A DNA stretch of 18,571 nt. Source: Candidatus Hydrogenedentota bacterium (GTDB taxonomy: Bacteria; Hydrogenedentota; Hydrogenedentia; Hydrogenedentales; GCA-2746185). Below the pieces are notes generated by a model. That model saw nothing but the letters and a program-made list of their open reading frames with translations, was not told the origin of the DNA and did not search any database. This document shows, one piece after another, positions 3,206-18,458 of this stretch (its first letter is position 1; each line of letters begins with the position of its first letter). Made by a program: the position numbers and the translations under genes. The stretch covers positions 1-18,571 of the forward strand of contig JAYGCN010000080.1 of assembly GCA_046583315.1 (NCBI GenBank). The letters run 5' to 3'.

Positions 3206-5134
3206 ATGAGCCAACAGACCTGTACATCATGTGGACACAGCGACCCGTCCACTGAAAGCATTTGCTCCCAATGTGGAGCGCCGTATCCGGTCGACACAGG
3301 CTCGACGCGTCAAGCAACTACCCTTCGCCCCGGGGAGGTGCTCGCCAATCGATACGTGATCGAAAAAATGATCGGCAAAGGCGGCATGGGCTGCATCTAT
3401 CAGGTGCGCGACAATACGCTGGGCGAAACGGTCGCCTTGAAGACACTGCTGCCAGAATACGTAAAAGAAAAAGCCGTGGTGGAACGTTTTTTCAACGAAG
3501 CGCGAATTGCCCGCGGGCTTTCTCATCCCCATATCGTGCGTGTTCACGATATCGGGATCACGGATGGCATGGCGTATATTTCTATGGAGTTGTTACCGGG
3601 CCGGACGTTGCGCGCCATGCTCGACAAGGTACGTCCCGGACGTCGCATTCCACTCAACGCCATTTTGCGTATGTTCGATGCCCTGTGCGCCGCGCTCGAT
3701 TACGCGCACAGCTACACCATTCACCGGGACATCAAACCGGAGAACGTGATGGTGTTGCCCGATGGCACTATTAAGCTTATGGATTTCGGCATTTCTAAAC
3801 TCATGTCCAATCCGAATCTTACTTCGCCATCCATGGTGATGGGTACCCCTCACTATATGTCTCCCGAACAATTGAAGAACAGTGCGAACGTCGATGCGCG
3901 GGCCGACATTTACAGCGTTGGGATCATGCTCTACGAAGCATTAACCGGTGATATTCCTACCGGGCTCTCGCGCGAGAATGACACCCTTCGGGAGGTTCCC
4001 GCTGCACTGGACCCCATCATCGCCAAATGCTGCGACCGCGACCCCGCCAAACGCTACCAGACGGTGGCTGAACTACGGACGGCCCTACGTACGATTCGTA
4101 AACAAGTCGAAACATCGTCCCCCGAATCCACCCCCCAACCCCGAAAAAAGGGACTCGGTAGCGCATCGGGCTTGCTCAGAAAAGTTGCAGCGATCTTACT
4201 ATTGGGCCTGGTCGGAACAGGTACCTACACGCTGTGGAACAAAGCAGAAAGTCGGCGCATCGAATTGAACGCTGCGATAATTGCCGAACCACGCCAGGAA
4301 TCGATACAAAACAATAGTCTATCCTCCCCAAAGCCACCCCCAAGTCCTGATACTTTCGAAGACATGAGGCACTTGGCACAACGGGCCAAACAAAAAGCCT
4401 CTTCTGCGCTGCTGGCGATGGAGAACAGTGTTCACTGCGCGCAGGCAACCCGATGCCTTGAGGAAGCCGCAGCACACTGGGCACTCGCGCTTGAATCGGA
4501 GGACAGCGATCCAGGCTTGGCCTTCAACGAAGGTTGGCTCGCACTGCACCGATATATTGCCGTCACACGATGGCCTGAAAATATGGCCTTCATTCCTGAA
4601 CAACGAAAAAACCTTCAATCACAAGGGACGACGTATGCGTCTCCGTTCTTCGTCGATATCAACGAAGTCACAGCAGATAGTTTCAGTTTTTTTGGACAGG
4701 TGGAAAACTGGCGCTGGCCCGACGGAACTCTCTCCGGCGATCGACCGATGACCAATGCAACCTATTACGATGCCGTGGGGTACCTGAACAGTCTTATGCT
4801 GCCCAAAAAACTACCGACGCAAGATCAATGGAGGCGCGCGCTGGATCAACTGCGATCACCTGCTGAGTCTATGTCCGCCGACGAAACCTCGATCCCTGAC
4901 GCAACCATCGGTTGGTTCGGTACGCCCCTGGATGAATGGGCGCGTTCTGATTTTCGCGACCCTGACGCAACCCGTTGGTTCGGTCGGCCGATTCCGATAC
5001 TGGGTGTGACGGAAGATGGATACCCGGACGACGTCGAAGCAATGCGCTATGAACAGCGTAATCCCAGAGTGACCTTTCGCGGTGTCTGGGAGCTGCCCAC
5101 CACATTATCGGCGGTAGAAAATATGCTTCAATAG
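3206..5134 (+). CDS. Hanks-type membrane Ser/Thr protein kinase: N-terminal zinc ribbon, kinase, TM helix, C-terminal FGE-sulfatase-like domain
   Basis: CTSC...CSQC; GKGGMG, VALK, HRDIKPEN, DFG, GTPHYMSPE, DIYSVG; hydrophobic VAAILLLGLVGTGTYTLW. C-terminal FFVDINEVT, PMTNATYYDA, LPTQDQW, EW and FR match the spacing of FGE/SUMF1-fold motifs. Confidence 0.9.
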   Translation: MSQQTCTSCGHSDPSTESICSQCGAPYPVDTGSTRQATTLRPGEVLANRYVIEKMIGKGGMGCIYQVRDNTLGETVALKTLLPEYVKEKAVVERFFNEARIARGLSHPHIVRVHDIGITDGMAYISMELLPGRTLRAMLDKVRPGRRIPLNAILRMFDALCAALDYAHSYTIHRDIKPENVMVLPDGTIKLMDFGISKLMSNPNLTSPSMVMGTPHYMSPEQLKNSANVDARADIYSVGIMLYEALTGDIPTGLSRENDTLREVPAALDPIIAKCCDRDPAKRYQTVAELRTALRTIRKQVETSSPESTPQPRKKGLGSASGLLRKVAAILLLGLVGTGTYTLWNKAESRRIELNAAIIAEPRQESIQNNSLSSPKPPPSPDTFEDMRHLAQRAKQKASSALLAMENSVHCAQATRCLEEAAAHWALALESEDSDPGLAFNEGWLALHRYIAVTRWPENMAFIPEQRKNLQSQGTTYASPFFVDINEVTADSFSFFGQVENWRWPDGTLSGDRPMTNATYYDAVGYLNSLMLPKKLPTQDQWRRALDQLRSPAESMSADETSIPDATIGWFGTPLDEWARSDFRDPDATRWFGRPIPILGVTEDGYPDDVEAMRYEQRNPRVTFRGVWELPTTLSAVENMLQ

Positions 5135-5256: not shown

Positions 5257-5664
5257 ATGAGTCAGATGAAATGCCCACACTGTGAGTCGGAAAGACTTGG
5301 TCAGGCTCGCGTACCCAAGGGCGTTGTCGCGGTGATGCCGTGTCCTGCATGTTCTGAACTTGTCGTCCGATTCCGTCACAAAGCCATCGCGCTAAATAGA
5401 GACGTTCTGTTTCAGGGCTCCAAAGAGGAACGCAAATTGCACTTGGCCGATGTCATCGCCGAATTTATGGATGAGGATGTGCTGCAATTCGAAATGCTCC
5501 AGGCGGGAGAAGAACCGCAGAACCATCACCATGAATCTGAAGACGAGGTCGAAGCTTCGGAAAGTGATCTACCTCCGATTACTGAGGCCGAGCTGAATAA
5601 ATTCATCAACGTGGACCTCGAAAATCTCGATAACCTCAACTACTTCAAGAAACATCTGGAGTAG
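5257..5664 (+). CDS. Hypothetical protein with an N-terminal double CxxC (zinc-ribbon-like) and an acidic C-terminal half
   Basis: AGGAG RBS before the ATG; CPHC and CPAC; fills the gap between the kinase and rlmB; 135 aa. Confidence 0.85.
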   Translation: MSQMKCPHCESERLGQARVPKGVVAVMPCPACSELVVRFRHKAIALNRDVLFQGSKEERKLHLADVIAEFMDEDVLQFEMLQAGEEPQNHHHESEDEVEASESDLPPITEAELNKFINVDLENLDNLNYFKKHLE

Positions 5665-9383: not shown

Positions 9384-10580
9384 TTACTTCCAATGTTTGT
9401 CCGCGAATCTCATATACTGGCGCCAATCATATTTCGTCAAATTGTGCTTACCGGATCGAATGTGATAACCGACGCGATCACCATGAACGGGCTTGTCCAC
9501 TGCAGGAAACGAGACATCGCCAAGACCATCGTGGCCGTAGAGCTGATAAACGGGGCGTGCGTGATACGCCGACAGGAATTCCCCCTCCGGGTCAGCCCAG
9601 GAGTCCTCTTGCGCGCTGGCAATATACAGTAGTCGAGGTGCAATGAGTGCGGCCAACATGTGCTGATCCACCGGTAACTCGGTGTCACGTCCATTGTATT
9701 TCTTGTAATTCCCGTTAAACCAATGTGGGAATCCGTTATTGATTTTCTCGATGGTCTCGCCTTTCATACGACGAGCAATCGCCGCCCCGGTGCATCCGGA
9801 CTCGTTACTCACGATCATCCCGAAACGTCGATCTTCGGCACCTGCCCAGAGCGCAGTTTTGCCGCCACGGGAATGACCGACCAAGGCGACCCTCGTCTGA
9901 TCGATCCACTTGTTCCCAGCCAGATAATCCATACAGAGGCTGGCCCCCCAGCCCCACGCGGAAATCGTGCCCCAGGCATCGCCCGGACGCGGTTCGTTCT
10001 TCGGATCGAATAGACCGTGTACCCCGTTTCGGAAGCCGTCATCGTTGTCCGGGTCAACCTCGCCATTCCAGAAGGCGGCGGCAACAAATCCGCGACGAAC
10101 AATCTCGCGCCAAGGCCAGAAACCGTTATTCTCGGTTAAGTCAATGTTGGATGGATCGCGGTTGCAGATCAGCAAAAAGGCAGGTAGGGAGTAAGGTTCA
10201 GTCACATCGCTGGGATACACGACGGTCATGTTGAGTTCGCCGGAACCGCGGGGCGCGTCGTATTTAATCTGCACGTATTCCGCGCGTGCGCGTCCGTGGT
10301 CGACGTTGTCGACATCGACGATGTAGCGACGATGATTCTTGACCCAGGGACGAACGAAGTTCTGGGTCTCGCTTGCCGTCCCCATGCCCTGGGGTCGACG
10401 GCCGTATACGTGTTCACGGAATAGCTCCAGAACTTCTTCGCGGCGACCGTCTTTCCATTGGTCCAGGGTGGTGATCGCCGTACCGTCATTGGCGACCAAT
10501 GGATCGGGGAGATTCAACTCATCGGCGAGCACGGTCCCCCCTATCATAATCGCAAGTGTCGTGGTCAGTAGGATTCGCAT
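9384..10580 (-). CDS. Secreted carbohydrate esterase family 15 (glucuronoyl esterase-like) alpha/beta hydrolase
   Basis: Signal peptide; LPDPL, WGWGAS, nucleophile motif GHSRGGK, SNESGCTG, PVDQHML, WADPEGE and GKH; AGGAG RBS. Confidence 0.88.
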   Translation of the reverse strand: MRILLTTTLAIMIGGTVLADELNLPDPLVANDGTAITTLDQWKDGRREEVLELFREHVYGRRPQGMGTASETQNFVRPWVKNHRRYIVDVDNVDHGRARAEYVQIKYDAPRGSGELNMTVVYPSDVTEPYSLPAFLLICNRDPSNIDLTENNGFWPWREIVRRGFVAAAFWNGEVDPDNDDGFRNGVHGLFDPKNEPRPGDAWGTISAWGWGASLCMDYLAGNKWIDQTRVALVGHSRGGKTALWAGAEDRRFGMIVSNESGCTGAAIARRMKGETIEKINNGFPHWFNGNYKKYNGRDTELPVDQHMLAALIAPRLLYIASAQEDSWADPEGEFLSAYHARPVYQLYGHDGLGDVSFPAVDKPVHGDRVGYHIRSGKHNLTKYDWRQYMRFADKHWK

Positions 10581-10618: not shown

Positions 10619-10840
10619 CTATCGGTTACGCAACTGGCTCAATACTTCCTCATCTTCAGGGAAGCGACCAGTCTCTTTTTTCGAGTAGATGGCATTGCCG
10701 TCCAGCTTGACGAGAAAAATTCCATTGCCTCCCTCGATCAATTCAGATTTCACCTCAAACTCCCGCTCTATCGCTGCGGCCAAACTGGTCGCATTGGGCA
10801 GGTAGTTTCACATCCCGCAATATTCGATGGATAGTTGCAT
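10619..10840 (-). CDS. Rdx-family (SelW/SelT/SelH-like) selenoprotein, 73 aa, Sec at codon 11
   Basis: GGGAGAG RBS, ATG at 10840, TAG at 10621-10619. Reading the TGA at 10810-10808 as Sec gives MQLSIEYCGMUNYLPNATSLAAAIEREFEVKSELIEGGNGIFLVKLDGNAIYSKKETGRFPEDEEVLSQLRNR. This has the Rdx pattern IEYCxxU-x-Y, G-x-F-x-V-x-x-DG and SK...GRFP. A SECIS-like hairpin follows the UGA. Confidence 0.92.
10775..10793 (-). promoter_or_regulatory. Putative bacterial SECIS element
   Basis: mRNA UGCGaCCA-GUU-UGGcCGCA starts 14 nt after the UGA: 7 pairs around one mismatch, with G first in the apical loop, 22 nt after the UGA. Confidence 0.75.
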
Positions 10841-10866
10841 CGTATTCTCTCCCGTTATAGTGTTAC

Positions 10867-11982
10867 CTACTCTAGTGTATCCTCAATACCCCGTTCCCGA
10901 TCAATACTCCCGCCGATAATATCCTGAACGGTCCAAAAATCATTCTCCCACGCTGAGCTGTATACCGTATCAATATCCCCGTCACTGCCGGCTACCAATA
11001 GCATGATTCGAAGATCATTCCGCTCGGCGAAATCGAGACCTTCCTCCATCCCCATGACCATCAGGGCCGTGGCGTAGGCATCGGCGTGGGCGCAATCGTC
11101 GCGCATCACCGAGGAAGACAGCAATTTGTGCGCTACCGGTTTGAGGGTCAAGGGATCAATGGTATGGGAAATCTGTACGCCGTCGATCTCCGAAAAATTG
11201 CGATAGTTTCCAGAGGTCGCGAGAGATTGATTGAGCAATGCAACTTGCGATTGAATCGCACGCACATCGGGCACGGGCTTTTCGATACCAACATTCCAGA
11301 AAAAATTACCCTTGTCGTTGTTTCCTCTCGCGCGTACCTCCCCCCCGATTTCCACGAAATAATTCTGAATGCCGCGTTCTTCAAGCAGCGCGGCTACGGC
11401 ATCCACGGCATAGCCTTTCGCGATGGCAGACAAATCACAATAGACCTTGGCGTGGTCTTTCGTGATTGTGCCGTCTGCAGATTCGATACGCAAGTGTTGA
11501 TAACCGACATACGCACGCATGGCATTGAGTTCTGAATCGGACGGCAGATCAATGTCCAACGTGGGGCCGAAGCCGTAAGCGTTTACGGCAGGACCGACGG
11601 TGATATCGAATCGGCCGTCGGTTTCTTCGGAAATTTTCAAAGCCAGGGCAAAGACCTCATACGTGTCCGGCGAAAGCGGAAAGGGTACATCGGCTTGCCA
11701 CCGGTTAAAGCGCGACAATTCCGAATCGGGATCATACGTCGACATGAGCGCATTGATCCCATCGAGGCGGTCGTCGATTTCGGACTGAAGCCCTCGCGTA
11801 CTACCCGAACCGTGCACCTTGACCATATAGGTGGTGCCCATGGTCTCACCGTTCAAATAGACACTTCCGGGTGGAGCGCCGGACGGAGATTGAGACAGCC
11901 GGTACCAACTCAGCGCAACCAAAATAAAAAGTCCCGCCATGAGCATGGCGAGACGTTTTTTGGTTAAAGGTTCGCTGGACAC
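10867..11982 (-). CDS. apbE: FAD:protein FMN transferase
   Basis: GETMGT, SELSRFN, DITVGP, DLSAIAKGYAVD, EIGGE, ATSGNY, SHTIDP and ADAYATA motifs; directly after nqrF. GTG start is uncertain. Confidence 0.95.
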   Translation of the reverse strand: MSSEPLTKKRLAMLMAGLFILVALSWYRLSQSPSGAPPGSVYLNGETMGTTYMVKVHGSGSTRGLQSEIDDRLDGINALMSTYDPDSELSRFNRWQADVPFPLSPDTYEVFALALKISEETDGRFDITVGPAVNAYGFGPTLDIDLPSDSELNAMRAYVGYQHLRIESADGTITKDHAKVYCDLSAIAKGYAVDAVAALLEERGIQNYFVEIGGEVRARGNNDKGNFFWNVGIEKPVPDVRAIQSQVALLNQSLATSGNYRNFSEIDGVQISHTIDPLTLKPVAHKLLSSSVMRDDCAHADAYATALMVMGMEEGLDFAERNDLRIMLLVAGSDGDIDTVYSSAWENDFWTVQDIIGGSIDRERGIEDTLE

Positions 11983-11993
11983 GGGCTGACCGC

Positions 11994-13226
11994 TTAGCCG
12001 CCGAAGTCGTCGAACATGATGTTCTCAGGTTCAACACCCAGGTCGGTCAACATATTAATTACCGCGTCGTTCATCATCGGCGGTCCACAGATGTAGTATT
12101 CACAATCTTCAGGGCTCTCGTGCTCTTTCAGGTATTCATCCAGCAACACCTGGTGAATGAATCCCACGTAGCCAGACCAATTGTCTTCTTCCAGCGGTTC
12201 GGACAGGGCCAGGTGCCACTCGAAATTGTCGTTGTCCTTCGCTATCGAATCAAAGTGGTCGATATAAAAGGCTTCCCGCAGACTCCGCGCGCCATACCAG
12301 AACGAAACTTTGCGATCCGTTTTGAGCGTCTTGAACTGCTCGAAGATGTGAGAACGCATCGGCGCCATACCAGCACCACCTCCAATGAAAACCATCTCGT
12401 TTTTGGTTTCGCGTGCAAAGAACTCGCCATAGGGACCCGAAATGACCACTTCATCGCCCGGCTTTAGATTGAAAATGTAGGACGACATAATGCCCGGCGG
12501 CGTTCCTTCCGGTGCGCGCGGTGGCGGCGTGGCGATACGCACATTCAGCATGATGATGTCCGATTCAGCCGGGAAGCTGGCCATGGAGTACGCGCGAAAT
12601 ACGGTATCGTTAACTACCGATTTGTAGCGCCAAATATTAAAATTGTCCCAGTCCGCCTTGTATTCGTCAGCGACCTCCATGTCCTTATAATCCGACACAT
12701 GAGGAGAGCATTCGATCTGAATATAACCACCGGCACGAAACGGTACCGCTTCGCCTTCAGGCAATTCAAGAATAAGCTCTTTGATAAACGTAGCCACATT
12801 GTCGTTCGAACGAACTTTGCAAGTCCACTTGCGCACATCGAATATCTCAGCGGGAATCTCAATCTTCAAGTCCTGTTTGACCTTGACCTGACAAGACAGA
12901 CGACATCCCTCGCGTGCTTCACCACGGTTAATAAAACTCAATTCCGTAGGCAGCATCGCACCCCCGCCCTCAAGAACTTTTACCGTGCACACGCCGCAGC
13001 TACCCTTACCCCCGCAGGCGGAAGGGATAAATATTTTCTGTTCGGCGAGCAGATTCAGCAATGTGCCGCCAGCGCTGGCCGTGATCGCCTTGTCCGGAGC
13101 GCCGTTGACCAAAACGGTCACATCGCCGCTACTGACCAGTTTGCCGCGTGCAAACATCAGCACAAACACCAGCGTCAGAATGATGCCCGTAAACATCACC
13201 ATACCCATCAAAATGGTTGTCAACAT
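11994..13226 (-). CDS. nqrF: Na+-translocating NADH:quinone reductase subunit F
   Basis: 2Fe-2S motif [12 protein letters not shown]...[25 protein letters not shown], and C-terminal DDFGG. Confidence 0.98.
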
Positions 13227-13254
13227 ACCGCGTTTCCTTCTAGCTAATTTCTAT

Positions 13255-13878
13255 TTAGAGCTGGATTCCGCCAAAGGCCATGAATCCGATCGCCATTAAA
13301 CCTGTAACAATAAACGTGATACCGAGTCCACGCAGACCTTCGGGTACGTTGCTGTACACCATCTTTTCACGTATCGCCGCGAGCAACACAACCGCAAGTG
13401 CCCAGCCGATGCCGTTTCCGAAACCGTACACAATGCTTTCAATGAAGTTGTAGTCCTTCTCCACCATAAATAACGACGCACCGAGAATGGCGCAATTCAC
13501 CGTAATGAGCGGCAAGAACACTCCAAGGGCCACGTACAGGGCCGGCACGAACTTGTCGAGAAACATCTCAAGTAACTGCACCGTCGCAGCGATGACCCCG
13601 ATGTAACTGATGAATCCGAGAAAGGAAAGGTCGTAGGTGCCGAGCGTGTCGCCCAGTCCAGGCACCCAACTCAGCGCGCCTTCCTTAAGCAGATAGTTGT
13701 ATACGAGATTATTCAAAGGCACCGTAATACCCAACACGAAAATAACCGCGAAGCCGAGCCCGATAGCCGTCTCAACTTTCTTTGAACACGCCAGGAAAGT
13801 ACACATGCCCAAAAACAGGGACAGCGCCATGTTCTCGATGAAAATCGCTTTGATCAGTATGTTGATATATTCTTCCAT
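13255..13878 (-). CDS. nqrE: Na+-NQR subunit E
   Basis: [26 protein letters not shown] and GLRGLGITF motifs. Confidence 0.98.
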
Positions 13879-13883
13879 GTCAA

Positions 13884-14516
13884 TTATCCCTCTTCAACCT
13901 GATCGGGTTTGATGGTGCGAATTCCCCAAATCATGAATCCGATGATGAAAAACGCGCCCGGCGCAAGCAGCATCAAACCATTGGGCAAATACCAGCCCCC
14001 GTCATTCACCGTCGCAAAAACGACTTTGCCGAATATCTTGCCGGCACCCAGCAATTCACGCGTTATCGCTGTGCCCATCAAAATCAGGCTGTAACCCAGA
14101 CCGTTGCCAAAACCATCCAGAAAACTCGGTAACGGCGCATTCTGCATCGCAAACCCTTCCGCGCGTCCCATCACAATACAGTTCGTAATGATAAGTCCCA
14201 CGAAGACAGTCAATTTTGCGCTCACATCAGGCACAAAAGCCTGCATCACCTGATCCGCGACGATTACAAAGGACGCGATAATACACATCTGCACGATGAT
14301 ACGAATGCTTGAAGGGATGTAGTTGCGCAGAAAACTGACCGACAAACTAGAAAAAGCCGTCACCAGTGTCAGGGCAATACACATGATAAGCGAGGGCATC
14401 ATCTGGGTCGTGACAGCAAGCGCCGAACAAATACCCAACACCTGCAACGCAATAGGGTTGTTGTTGATAAGCGGATCCAACATGATTTTCCGCTCTTCTT
14501 TGCCAAGTATCGCCAT
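13884..14516 (-). CDS. nqrD: Na+-NQR subunit D
   Basis: [18 protein letters not shown] and [15 protein letters not shown] motifs. Confidence 0.98.
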
Positions 14517-15313
14517 TATGCATCACTCCCTTCAGAATTCAGACTCGCCAGATAAGGACCAAAGCCCTCTTTACCGAGCCAGAAACGCAATAAATTTGTC
14601 ACGCCGTTACTGGTCAATGTCGCGCCGGCCAATCCGTCCACCGCATACGGTGTTTCTTCCGGAGTGCCCGCAGGACCTTTGATGACCTTTATCATCACTT
14701 CGCCACTGTCGTCATACACCTTGCGTCCCGGCCATTTGGCTTTCCAGCTCGGATTGTCCACTTCAGCGCCGAGCCCGGGTGTTTCTTTATGTTTAAAGAA
14801 CGTCAGACCACGTATCGTTTCGATGTCTTTGTCCAGCGAAACGAAGCCGTAGAGGGTACCCCACAATCCCATACCTTCTACCGGCAAAACGAGATTGTCC
14901 GCGTTTCCCTCTTCATCCTGGATGATGTATATCGGAATGTGTTTTGGGACACGTTTGACCTTGGCGAAGTTCGCATCCGCCTCGTTGCTCAACGCAGGGT
15001 TCTTCGACGCTTTCAACTGGTCATAGGTCAGCGGATCGTCTATACCGCTATCCGTCACGACTTTACCGCTTTGCATATCAATAATCAGGGATTCGATACG
15101 TGTGTCGAAAAGTACATTCACCTCATCCTGCGAAGGTTTTACACCTTCTTCGATCAATCCGGATACCGCAAGAATCTTAATCTGTTTCGCGTATAATTGA
15201 TTGGCCAGCTGCCGATCTTTCAGCAGCACTGCCGTCGACGATACCAATAACGAACAGGCCAAACAGACAACAGCAGAAAATCCGACGATGTACTTAATGC
15301 TATTCTGCTGCAT
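14516..15313 (-). CDS. nqrC: Na+-NQR subunit C
   Basis: Start placed at ATG 15313 (MQQNSIK), which follows a GGAGGGAG RBS inside the nqrB end. GLWG, ETPGLG and FMN site [11 protein letters not shown]. Confidence 0.96.
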
Positions 15314-16529
15314 AACGTGCCTCCCTCCGTTTGATGTTTTCCTGAATAAAGAAATAGTCAATCAGGGGAGCGACCATGTTCATAAACAATATTGCCAACA
15401 TCCAGCCTTCCGGGAATGCCGGATTTATCGTACGTACCAGAATTCCGAATATACCAATGAAGAAACCGTAGATGAGTTTGCCGTTATTCGTGAAGGCCGA
15501 CGATACCGGGTCGGTCGCCATAAAGACCGCCGCAAACGCAAATCCGCCAAGCACCCAGTGCCAGTAGAAGGGTATCTCGAACATGGGGTTCGTTTCCGAA
15601 CCCACCGTAGTGAGAATCACGGCCATCACAAAACTACCGGCCACGCAACCCGCCATCGTGCGCCACGAGCCTACGCCGCTGATAATCAGTACCGCCGCTC
15701 CAAAGAGGCACAACAGCGTCGAGGTCTCGCCGATAGAACCGGGAATAAAGCCCAGGAATGCCTGACCCCAAGTGAATCCGCTTTCCCGAATCCCGTCCAT
15801 GCCCGTAAGAGCCGCACGACCGAGAAGTGTGGCACCCGAATAACCGTCCGCGGTCGTCTGCGCAGCTATCCAGACTTTATCGCCGGAGATTTGCGCTGGG
15901 TATGCGAAAAACAAAAATGCGCGCCCGGCCAGAGCAGGATTCAAGAAATTCATGCCCACCCCGCCGAATATTTCCTTGGCCACAACCACCCCGAACGCGA
16001 TGCCCATCGCCACCTGCCAAAGCGGCGTGCTTGCCGGAAGAATCAGCGGAAACAACGCGCCGGATACGAGGAAACCCTCGGTAATATCATGTTTGCGAAT
16101 CACTGCGAAAAGAGCTTCGAGCAGTCCCCCCACCGTCATGGTCACGGCGTATATCGGAATATAATGTATCGCGCCGAAGAGAATGCATCCGAACCAGCTA
16201 GCCGTATTAAAGTCCCAGCCCATAAATTGATACAGATTCGTCTGCCACGTATCGCCTGGAAGCGCACCACCTTCGATGGCCAGGAAGGCCTGTAGCCCAG
16301 TGTTGTACATCGCCATCAACATACACGGGGATAAGGCAATCACCACGGTGAACATCATGCGCTTGAGATCCAGGCCGTCGCGCACATGGGACGCGCCCTT
16401 CGTCGTCTCGCCGGGAGTCAACATGAAGGTGTCGCCTGCCTCGAACAAGGGATACAGCTTTTCCAGCGGTTTCCCTTTGGCAAACAACATCTCGTGTTGT
16501 TTATCTTGTAAATCTTTCAAGAATTTCAT
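15300..16529 (-). CDS. nqrB: Na+-NQR subunit B
   Basis: HVRDGLDLKRMM, KEIFGG, NPALAGRAF, FMN site DGYSGAT and FMATDPVS. ATG 16529 follows AAGGA; TTG 16532 is an alternative start. Confidence 0.97.
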   Translation of the reverse strand: MKFLKDLQDKQHEMLFAKGKPLEKLYPLFEAGDTFMLTPGETTKGASHVRDGLDLKRMMFTVVIALSPCMLMAMYNTGLQAFLAIEGGALPGDTWQTNLYQFMGWDFNTASWFGCILFGAIHYIPIYAVTMTVGGLLEALFAVIRKHDITEGFLVSGALFPLILPASTPLWQVAMGIAFGVVVAKEIFGGVGMNFLNPALAGRAFLFFAYPAQISGDKVWIAAQTTADGYSGATLLGRAALTGMDGIRESGFTWGQAFLGFIPGSIGETSTLLCLFGAAVLIISGVGSWRTMAGCVAGSFVMAVILTTVGSETNPMFEIPFYWHWVLGGFAFAAVFMATDPVSSAFTNNGKLIYGFFIGIFGILVRTINPAFPEGWMLAILFMNMVAPLIDYFFIQENIKRREARYAAE

Positions 16530-16580
16530 CAACGTTCCTTAATAAAAGTATTTCTATTTCAAAAAATCAAGCAGTCGAGA

Positions 16581-17960
16581 TCACCCTTCCGCTTCAATTA
16601 CCGTCAACACTTCACGCAAATACGGGCCGTACTCATATTTGCCCGGACACGCGAAGGTGCATAGCGCCAGATCTTCTTCGTCAAGCTCAAGACACCCCAG
16701 CTTCTCAGCACCCTCAACATCCCCCATCACCAATGCGCGCAATAAATGGGTCGGCATGATATCCAGCGGCACGACTTTCTCGTACATACCTATCGGAACC
16801 ATCGCCCGCATTGATCCGTTCGTGGAGGTCGTGAAGTTAAACTTGTGATTCGGTCGCAACTTCGACACGAAGGTATTGATGATCGAAAATTTTTCCTGAC
16901 CCGGTCCAAGCCACCCAAGGAACACACGTTCCTTATCTTCAGCGATCACAGAAATCTGATTGTGAAAACGACCCAGATAGCCAAGTGCATCACCCGAAGC
17001 CTTACGACCGGACAATACTGACCCCGATATAACGCGATTCAAGTCGCCTTCGGTCTGACTGTCGACCAAACTATCCGTCGAGGCACCAATACGCGTCTTG
17101 AGCAGTCGCGGCTTTATTACCTGCGGCCCGGCCAGCGAAATAACTCGGCTTACATCAAGCTCACCTGTGGTTATCAAGGTACCAATGGCGATCACGTCCT
17201 GATAGCCGATATGCCAGGCCACGCGACCGCGATGAGCCGGTTTCAGCATGTGAATATGAGTTCCCGGAGCACCCGCTGGATGGGGACCGGAGAATTGTTC
17301 GTGACTAATGCCCGCATAGGGCCCGACACCGATCGCTGAATTTTCGGCTGTACACAGAAACATGTTGCCTTCGCGCAATTTTGCGATGGCCGCCATGCCT
17401 TTTTCGAAAGGCGTTTCGTTGCCGCTGAAAACCACATCCACATCCGCCGCCAAAGGATTCGTATCCATGGCCGTAACGAAAATCGCGCCAGGTTCCGAAT
17501 CAACACTCGGCACCTTGCTGAAAGGGCGCGTGCGAAATGCGGTCCACAAGCCGGATTCAATCAGTAGCGCACGCACCTCATCGCAACTGTACGACGCGAT
17601 ATCTTTATCCTGATAACTATCGAAGGCGACTACTTCCTCCTTCGAAGGTGTACCCGCACGTTCGCCTTCGGAAAGTTCAACGACAACCGATTGCAGCGCG
17701 CGTTTCTCGCCACGGTTCACAGCCGATATAGTCCCTGCCGCGGGCGAGGTATAAATGGTGCCGGGAGATTTCTTGTCTTCGAAAAGTGCTTGACCGCGTT
17801 TCACGGTATCGCCCACCGCGACAAGCATGGTCGGTTTCATGCCGACATAATCTGCAGCCATCAATGCAACATGCGAAACGGAAACGCCTGCTTCAATGAC
17901 TTGTTCGGGTGTGCCAGCAATCGGCAGGTCCAAACCCTTCTTAATCTTATGAACGCCCAT
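16581..17960 (-). CDS. nqrA: Na+-NQR subunit A
   Basis: [25 protein letters not shown] and [22 protein letters not shown] motifs; AAGGAG RBS. Confidence 0.98.
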
Positions 17961-18381: not shown

Positions 18382-18458
18382 GCCTGGGTAGCTCAGTTGG
18401 TTAGAGCGCTGGCTTGTGGTGCCAGATGTCCTCAGTTCGAATCTGAGCCCGGGTACCA
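18382..18458 (+). tRNA. tRNA-His (GUG) with an atypical acceptor end
   Basis: 77-nt cloverleaf: acceptor GCCTGGG/CCCGGGT, D arm GCTC/GAGC, anticodon arm CTGGC-TTGTGGT-GCCAG (GTG at 18416-18418), T arm CTCAG-TTCGAAT-CTGAG, discriminator A, encoded CCA. Confidence 0.97.

Follow-up and report, generated by a model that had tools for sequence, protein, structure and literature searches.

The window, i.e., the whole stretch of 18,571 nucleotides that was analyzed, contains on one strand, in this order, nqrABCDEF, apbE, a short gene of the Rdx (SelW-like) family, a gene for a CE15-type esterase and a gene for a YHYH protein (Table 1). The Rdx gene begins 26 nt beyond the apbE stop and is followed after 38 nt by the CE15-type start. 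Its frame (minus strand) comprises 74 codons including the stop, i.e., 73 residues if the sole in-frame TGA, found at codon 11 in the context YCGM-TGA-NY, is read through; a leader sequence is absent from this protein, as judged by inspection. The initial annotation had described the frame with the same boundaries and codon number, a ribosome-binding site and a TGA at the second position of a CxxC-type motif, all of which proved exact. Elsewhere in the window, the plus strand carries a gene for a Ser/Thr protein kinase whose C-terminus has a weak FGE-sulfatase-like domain (3206-5134), a gene for a protein of 135 aa that has two CxxC pairs in its N-terminal part and a sub-threshold Pfam match only (5257-5664), and a tRNA-His gene (18382-18458), which is the only Rfam match in the window at gathering scores.

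Table 1. Features of the Rdx gene and its surroundings (positions in the window)
Feature	Position	Strand	Basis
SelW-like/Rdx gene, ATG to TAG	10619..10840	-	TGA read through; family HMMs
Shine-Dalgarno-like GGAG, 8 nt 5' of ATG	10849..10852	-	read in sequence; putative function
Cys8 codon TGC, first position of CxxU	10817..10819	-	Cys in 80/80 distinct TGA-type sequences
In-frame TGA, predicted selenocysteine 11	10808..10810	-	TGA in 87/87 close loci, TGC/TGT in 19/19 distant loci
Full predicted hairpin including gene-specific lower stem	10757..10807	-	lower-stem pair probabilities mostly near 1 here
Conserved apical stem-loop of predicted SECIS: 7 pairs, one internal mismatch, GUU loop 10785-10783	10775..10793	-	pairing in 80 sequences
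Internal TTG-started 54-aa frame without redox motif	10619..10783	-	TTG at 10783-10781
apbE flavin transferase, upstream neighbor	10867..11982	-	PF02424, E 2e-85
CE15-type glucuronoyl-esterase-like gene, downstream neighbor	9384..10580	-	PF22244, E 1.2e-28
nqrABCDEF cluster, upstream	11994..17960	-	Pfam NQRA, NQR2_RnfD_RnfE, FMN_bind, Rnf-Nqr (twice), Fer2/FAD/NAD binding

With U entered as C, the translation scores above the cut-offs of three family models, i.e., Pfam PF10262 (Rdx; 66.3 bits versus 22.6, E 2.9e-18, residues 3-72), TIGR02174 (59.2 versus 34.2 bits) and, marginally, NF041051 (90.6 versus 88 bits). Because the Pfam match crosses the TGA at this E value, the frame is more than a chance one, and the earlier statement that the Rdx signature continues past the TGA holds. 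The C-terminal part of the Rdx family (the G-x-F and K...F-P-E stretches) is conserved in the predicted protein; residues G40, F42, K54, F60, P61 and E62 are unchanged in all six aligned sequences, and the two stretches are present in the PDB alignments. The translation matches seven solved structures, among which human MIEN1 (2ljk) and SAV_2001 (3dex) rank best; in both of these the TGA column corresponds to the second Cys of a CxxC motif, such that C8-G-M-U11 aligns with CxxC. A thioredoxin-like fold is supported as a prediction from these matches. The genome has one more Rdx match, a weak one (contig C117, 22.9 bits, three TGA), which is not a credible gene when viewed in three frames.

The Cys-type Rdx structures (3dex, 2fa8, 2oka, 2ojl, 2obk and 2p0g) are homologous over residues 3-72 (E 1e-7 to 0.004), but have Cys in place of Sec and longer chains of 103-108 aa, and MIEN1 (also named C17orf37) is likewise of the Cys type, unlike the predicted Sec protein described here. 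In eukaryotic SelW, SelT and SelH the SECIS is found in the 3'-UTR and differs in structure from the bacterial element. Bacterial SelW-like selenoproteins (PF10262, TIGR02174, NF041051), on the other hand, share with the present gene a CxxU near the N-terminus of a single domain of ~70-80 aa, a SECIS just 3' of the UGA and marine occurrence. There is no difference in kind from these proteins; only the position after nqr-apbE is unusual, and this position is unconserved.

Homologous loci and gene neighborhood

The codon-11 column was compared over 106 homologous loci, where it holds either TGA (87 loci) or, in 19 distant homologues, a Cys codon (TGC or TGT), with no other residue; the CxxC of the latter likewise aligns with C8-G-M-U11. 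The TGA loci consist of 80 from metagenomes (the best 80 of 526 confirmed), four from named genomes (two Marinacidobacterium, SAR324 and Planctomycetaceae, all four with TGA) and three from relatives. Identities of the close homologues are ~49-69%, and they represent at least three named lineages besides that of the source. Because the loci were picked for closeness and are related to each other, the 87 TGA loci do not amount to 87 independent trials. Beyond the TGA, the frame stays open for 57-69 codons in 88/88 TGA loci, the gene described here included.

A search of 61 genomes of the same order gave a match in 23, where the source and three members of its family have TGA and the 19 more distant ones TGC or TGT. 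In a quick tree (101 rows and 76 columns, with 18 Cys-type sequences from relatives, and with duplicates and loci cut before the start dropped) a single long branch (SH-aLRT 100) separates the Sec type from the Cys type, and little else is resolved; 60 of the 98 inner branches are open, and a donor or a transfer is beyond the support of this tree. Because of this long branch, the Cys-type Rdx of the relatives is a separate subfamily and not a set of recent Sec-to-Cys swaps. Three genomes of one genus, all selA-positive (G010, G011 and G013; loci L034, L035 and L028), have a distant Cys-type Rdx, and no Sec type was found in them.

The spacing behind apbE makes co-transcription with nqr-apbE plausible; between apbE and the Rdx gene no terminator-like site was called, and a promoter scan gave nothing above shuffles. 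Given this arrangement on the same strand, one may consider a model where the selenoprotein is a dedicated, co-transcribed redox partner of the Na+-translocating NADH:quinone oxidoreductase (Nqr) or of ApbE. In a more specific form of this model, the selenoprotein was recruited in the source lineage into the nqrABCDEF-apbE transcript to assemble or protect the sodium-pumping NADH dehydrogenase, which, if true, would assign a defined client to a bacterial SelW-like protein. However, a tblastn search with ApbE, NqrE, NqrF, the CE15-type esterase and the YHYH protein gave a match in 0/87 of the other TGA loci (median length 3.2 kb, 33/88 at least 4 kb, many short), and on these grounds linkage to nqr, apbE or CE15 was not accepted as conserved. 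The flanking open reading frames are scattered (63 of 127 scanned; the commonest being AhpC-TSA, Pyr_redox_2 and epimerase, three each), and the neighbors in the three same-family relatives differ from those in the source. In view of the lack of ApbE, NqrE and NqrF matches at these 87 loci and the scattered flanks, a dedicated Nqr or ApbE partner is very unlikely, and recruitment into the transcript in the source lineage would be a similarly long shot. A full-text literature search found no paper combining at least three of the terms SelW-like, selenoprotein, Na+-NQR and apbE. At three of the loci (L089, L095 and L085) an AhpC-TSA gene lies divergently beside the Rdx gene; clustering of Prx with SELENOW-like genes is mentioned in PMC13188914.

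The predicted SECIS element

A hairpin with a GUU loop 3' of the TGA, noted in the initial annotation, is present as described, with a predicted energy of -18.4 kcal/mol and the loop 22 nt past the UGA. Limits given for bacterial SECIS (bSECIS) elements in PMC13188914 are a loop of 3-9 nt with a G in the first two loop positions, a distance of 16-37 nt from the UGA, an upper stem of 4-16 bp and an energy of at most -7.5 kcal/mol. The hairpin, with its 3-nt loop and 7 pairs, lies within each of these limits. The screen was our own loose implementation of the bacterial model, not bSECISearch, and 124/589 ordinary TGA stops as well as 395/1000 synonymous shuffles also pass it. Twelve of 1000 synonymous shuffles were as stable as the native hairpin, and the stability z-score was -1.77 at 61 nt (13/200 shuffles as stable) and -0.04 at 81 nt. 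Stability was therefore rejected as proof of a SECIS, being too unspecific, and because it is weak by itself, the argument for the element is drawn from comparison across sequences.

In an alignment of 80 distinct TGA-type sequences the seven apical pairs are formed in 92% of 560 cells, as compared to 86.7% in shuffles (0/500 as high) and 22-51% in slid controls. In 21 cells both sides have changed; the number of pairs with double changes (two) is no larger than in shuffles, 422/500 of which are as high. The pair that joins two wobble positions holds in 78/80 sequences with 14 double changes, this gene among them. The G of the loop is found in 80/80 sequences, though the residue encoded there varies between Ser, Gly and Arg, i.e., it is retained also where the residue is Gly (16) or Arg (3). 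Where the residue is Ser, the codon is AGT in 61/61 sequences, while only 95/274 Ser codons elsewhere are AGY. All 80 sequences have C at a four-fold degenerate site, and the G that pairs with it is invariant.

The RNAalifold consensus is weak (-0.73 kcal/mol), containing four of the apical pairs and no lower stem. The long lower stem does not qualify as conserved: because its pairs hold in just 26-62 of the 80 sequences, the conserved element is, on this comparison, the short apical stem-loop at 10793-10775.

Selenocysteine machinery and the reading of the TGA

The genes expected for Sec insertion were all found in the genome with scores above curated cut-offs, i.e., selA (576 bits), selB (329 bits), selD (268 bits) and tRNA-Sec (78 bits), which agrees with the earlier suggestion that the organism has this machinery. 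Adjoining selA and selB genes are located on contig C271, and selD and tRNA-Sec on contig C299; both contigs are other than that of the Rdx gene, in a genome bin with a contamination of 5.4%. The selB gene is full-length and encodes the C-terminal SelB-wing_3 winged-helix domain (SECIS-binding). The sole selD (L018, G000:C299:30080-32395), ~4 kb from tRNA-Sec, encodes an Ndh-SelD fusion with CxxC; it passes TIGR00476 and also resembles the "fusion_not_SelD" family, below the cut-off of the latter (439 versus 700). Ndh-fused SelD is described as common in marine samples (PMC2398784). Genes named from their sequences as sulfate adenylyltransferase-like lie near this selD.

Among the 61 genomes, which are kin and not independent, selA was found over its cut-off in 4/4 with a TGA-type Rdx versus 4/19 with the Cys type. 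In the survey of G001-G060 (completeness 63-100%, where a gene not found is not necessarily absent) the corresponding numbers were 10 of 13 relatives belonging to the source's family and one of 47 genomes of the 12 other families of the order that were sampled. Use of Sec thus looks concentrated in the source's family.

Readthrough of a UGA competes with termination. Such competition, together with the in-frame TTG downstream of the TGA, would allow for a situation where the main product is a 54-residue piece starting at this TTG, or a ten-residue peptide ending at the UGA, the full selenoprotein being rare or absent. The 54-aa frame is likely the product that a standard gene caller would report. 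Among the database homologues, 12/13 are only 51-60 aa long, and 8/8 of these that were viewed start at the position of the internal TTG, which bears out the earlier claim that gene callers miss the full frame. Because these 12 are short pieces that lack the active site, the annotation gap is systematic. As a functional product, however, the TTG piece would be without the first strand and both redox residues. Furthermore, conservation extends to the ten codons 5' of the TGA (Ile, Tyr and Cys in 78-80/80 sequences), and a start codon is found exactly ten codons upstream in at least 72/80. The Leu codon at the internal position is TTG in 40/80 and CTG in 40/80 sequences, which fits the hairpin and not the need for a start codon. 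These data render a short main product extremely unlikely.

An alternative explanation is that the TGA is a nonsense mutation or an assembly error in a former CxxC gene, i.e., that the frame is a pseudogene. Two other genes in the genome, of the beta-lactamase (L146, G000:C303:72758-73666) and sulfatase (L147, G000:C297:32141-33094) families, each have an in-frame TGA outside a Cys motif, within the stretch covered by a Pfam domain. These TGAs are probably nonsense changes and imply that an in-frame TGA in this genome is not always Sec; loci L145 and L148 resemble these two and match no family. At the Rdx locus, the conservation of the TGA in all 87 close loci across lineages already refutes a pseudogene, and the downstream frame and the hairpin are conserved as well. 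In addition, contigs from four runs of four studies span the codon and list no other letter, TGC and TGT included; in three of these runs from three studies (X3, X5 and X7) the contigs bridge the codon unchanged with more than 31 bases on either side. Seven contigs of other organisms from the same runs align solely over 10773-10822, i.e., over the UGA and the apical hairpin. No RNA data set containing the sequence was listed among 24 runs, which is neutral as to expression of the gene. The probability left for a pseudogene is negligible.

Equally little can be said for a genome-wide reading of TGA as Trp or Gly (codes 4 or 25), with an ordinary residue at position 11, which the W at this column in the database homologue P0002 would favor (we infer that this W stems from a code-4 gene caller) and which is ruled out by TGA ending 590/2350 long open reading frames (those of nqrA and the beta-CASP gene included, as already noted in the initial annotation), an intact release factor 2 (prfB) and a tRNA-Trp with the anticodon CCA. 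At default stringency, tRNA-Sec is the sole tRNA with a TCA anticodon, and selA, selB, selD, prfB and 4/4 molybdopterin-domain matches are without an internal TGA. Four extra TCA-anticodon "tRNAs" appeared with relaxed ARAGORN settings only, and none of them is found among the tRNA-Sec matches of Rfam over the cut-off.

We consider it very likely, with little room for doubt, that the UGA is read as Sec and that the product is an Rdx (SelW-like) protein of 73 residues, predicted to be a small thioredoxin-like redox protein with a Cys-Gly-Met-Sec active site. The selenoprotein proposed in the initial annotation is thereby supported, with incorporation of selenium as the part that we infer; the three observations that it had named as contrary (missing sel genes, a Cys codon in reads at the TGA, and homologues with neither Cys nor Sec in this column) were not made.

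Predicted function and the wider selenoproteome

The genome contains at least 12 further predicted selenoproteins. Among 26 AhpC-TSA matches, 11 carry one TGA, in each case inside a redox motif; the types include WAxxUGC-like (three, just under the cut-off), SelL-related (one, over the cut-off) and deiodinase-like (one) proteins. An AhpD-related CFYUT protein, over its cut-off, also has the TGA in its redox motif. The loci (L131-L141 and L143) are found on contigs C163, C101, C94, C272, C186, C154, C9, C318, C303, C77, C17 and C207 of G000, most of them with a G-loop hairpin; those on C94 and C272 are near-copies, possibly strain duplicates. In a set of 14 relatives, SelL-type matches with TGA (9/18) occur solely in selA-positive genomes. 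Two additional candidate loci with a UxxC-type motif lie ~4 kb apart on the minus strand, one encoding a heavy-metal-associated domain fused to the motif-bearing region (L142, G000:C186:25761-26588) and one matching no Pfam or NCBIfam family at 1e-4 (L144, G000:C186:30802-31431); they are possibly part of a metal-handling cluster. Because the genome-wide TGA scan was heuristic (125 candidates passed, of which 20 were read by eye and seven new ones scanned against families), the count is a floor. Searches with the Thioredoxin, GSHPx (over cut-off), CMD and molybdopterin families gave no extra TGA-containing members; the CMD search missed the AhpD-related gene that the TGA scan had found. The published record for a bacterial selenoproteome, 57-63 genes, is far above the count here.

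Established bacterial Sec biology suggests a sequence of events in which SelD would make selenophosphate and SelA the Sec-tRNA. SelB would then bind the G-containing loop at the apex, 22 nt 3' of the UGA, and deliver Sec in competition with release factor 2, in line with the established steps described in PMC9312934. In the mature protein, Cys8 and Sec11 may cycle between a reduced and a selenenylsulfide form, as would be expected from the family. Because of the CxxU motif and by analogy with the CxxC of MIEN1, for which a redox potential of -225 mV has been measured (PMC3527542), the most likely role of the protein is that of a general thiol/disulfide reductase of the cytoplasm or of a redox switch acting on other proteins; this assignment of a thiol/selenol activity draws on distant relatives (~35% identical). 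It would belong to a group of twelve or more selenium redox proteins in the cell and would not be a dedicated part of Nqr.

SelW-like CxxU proteins are listed under PF10262 as a bacterial selenoprotein family (PMC9312934, PMC13188914). By 2005, 48 such genes had been catalogued in the Sargasso Sea set (PMC1088965), and 427 were reported from the marine GOS set, the largest count in the corresponding table (PMC2398784). The family is thus already catalogued and has NCBIfam models; the gene described here is a further member, and its identification correctly fills a gap in annotation without being new biology. What most bacterial selenoproteins do, the SelW-like ones included, is described as largely uncharacterized (PMC13188914), and this gene gives no particular entry to the function of the family, because its neighborhood is unconserved and a cultured source is not apparent. 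It does indicate that the source's marine lineage uses selenocysteine, and following it up brought to light a sizeable set of hidden, predicted selenoproteins encoded by the same genome. In addition, the alignment of 80 sequences provides a clean case where a predicted SECIS limits the choice of codons, and even of amino acids, within a coding region.
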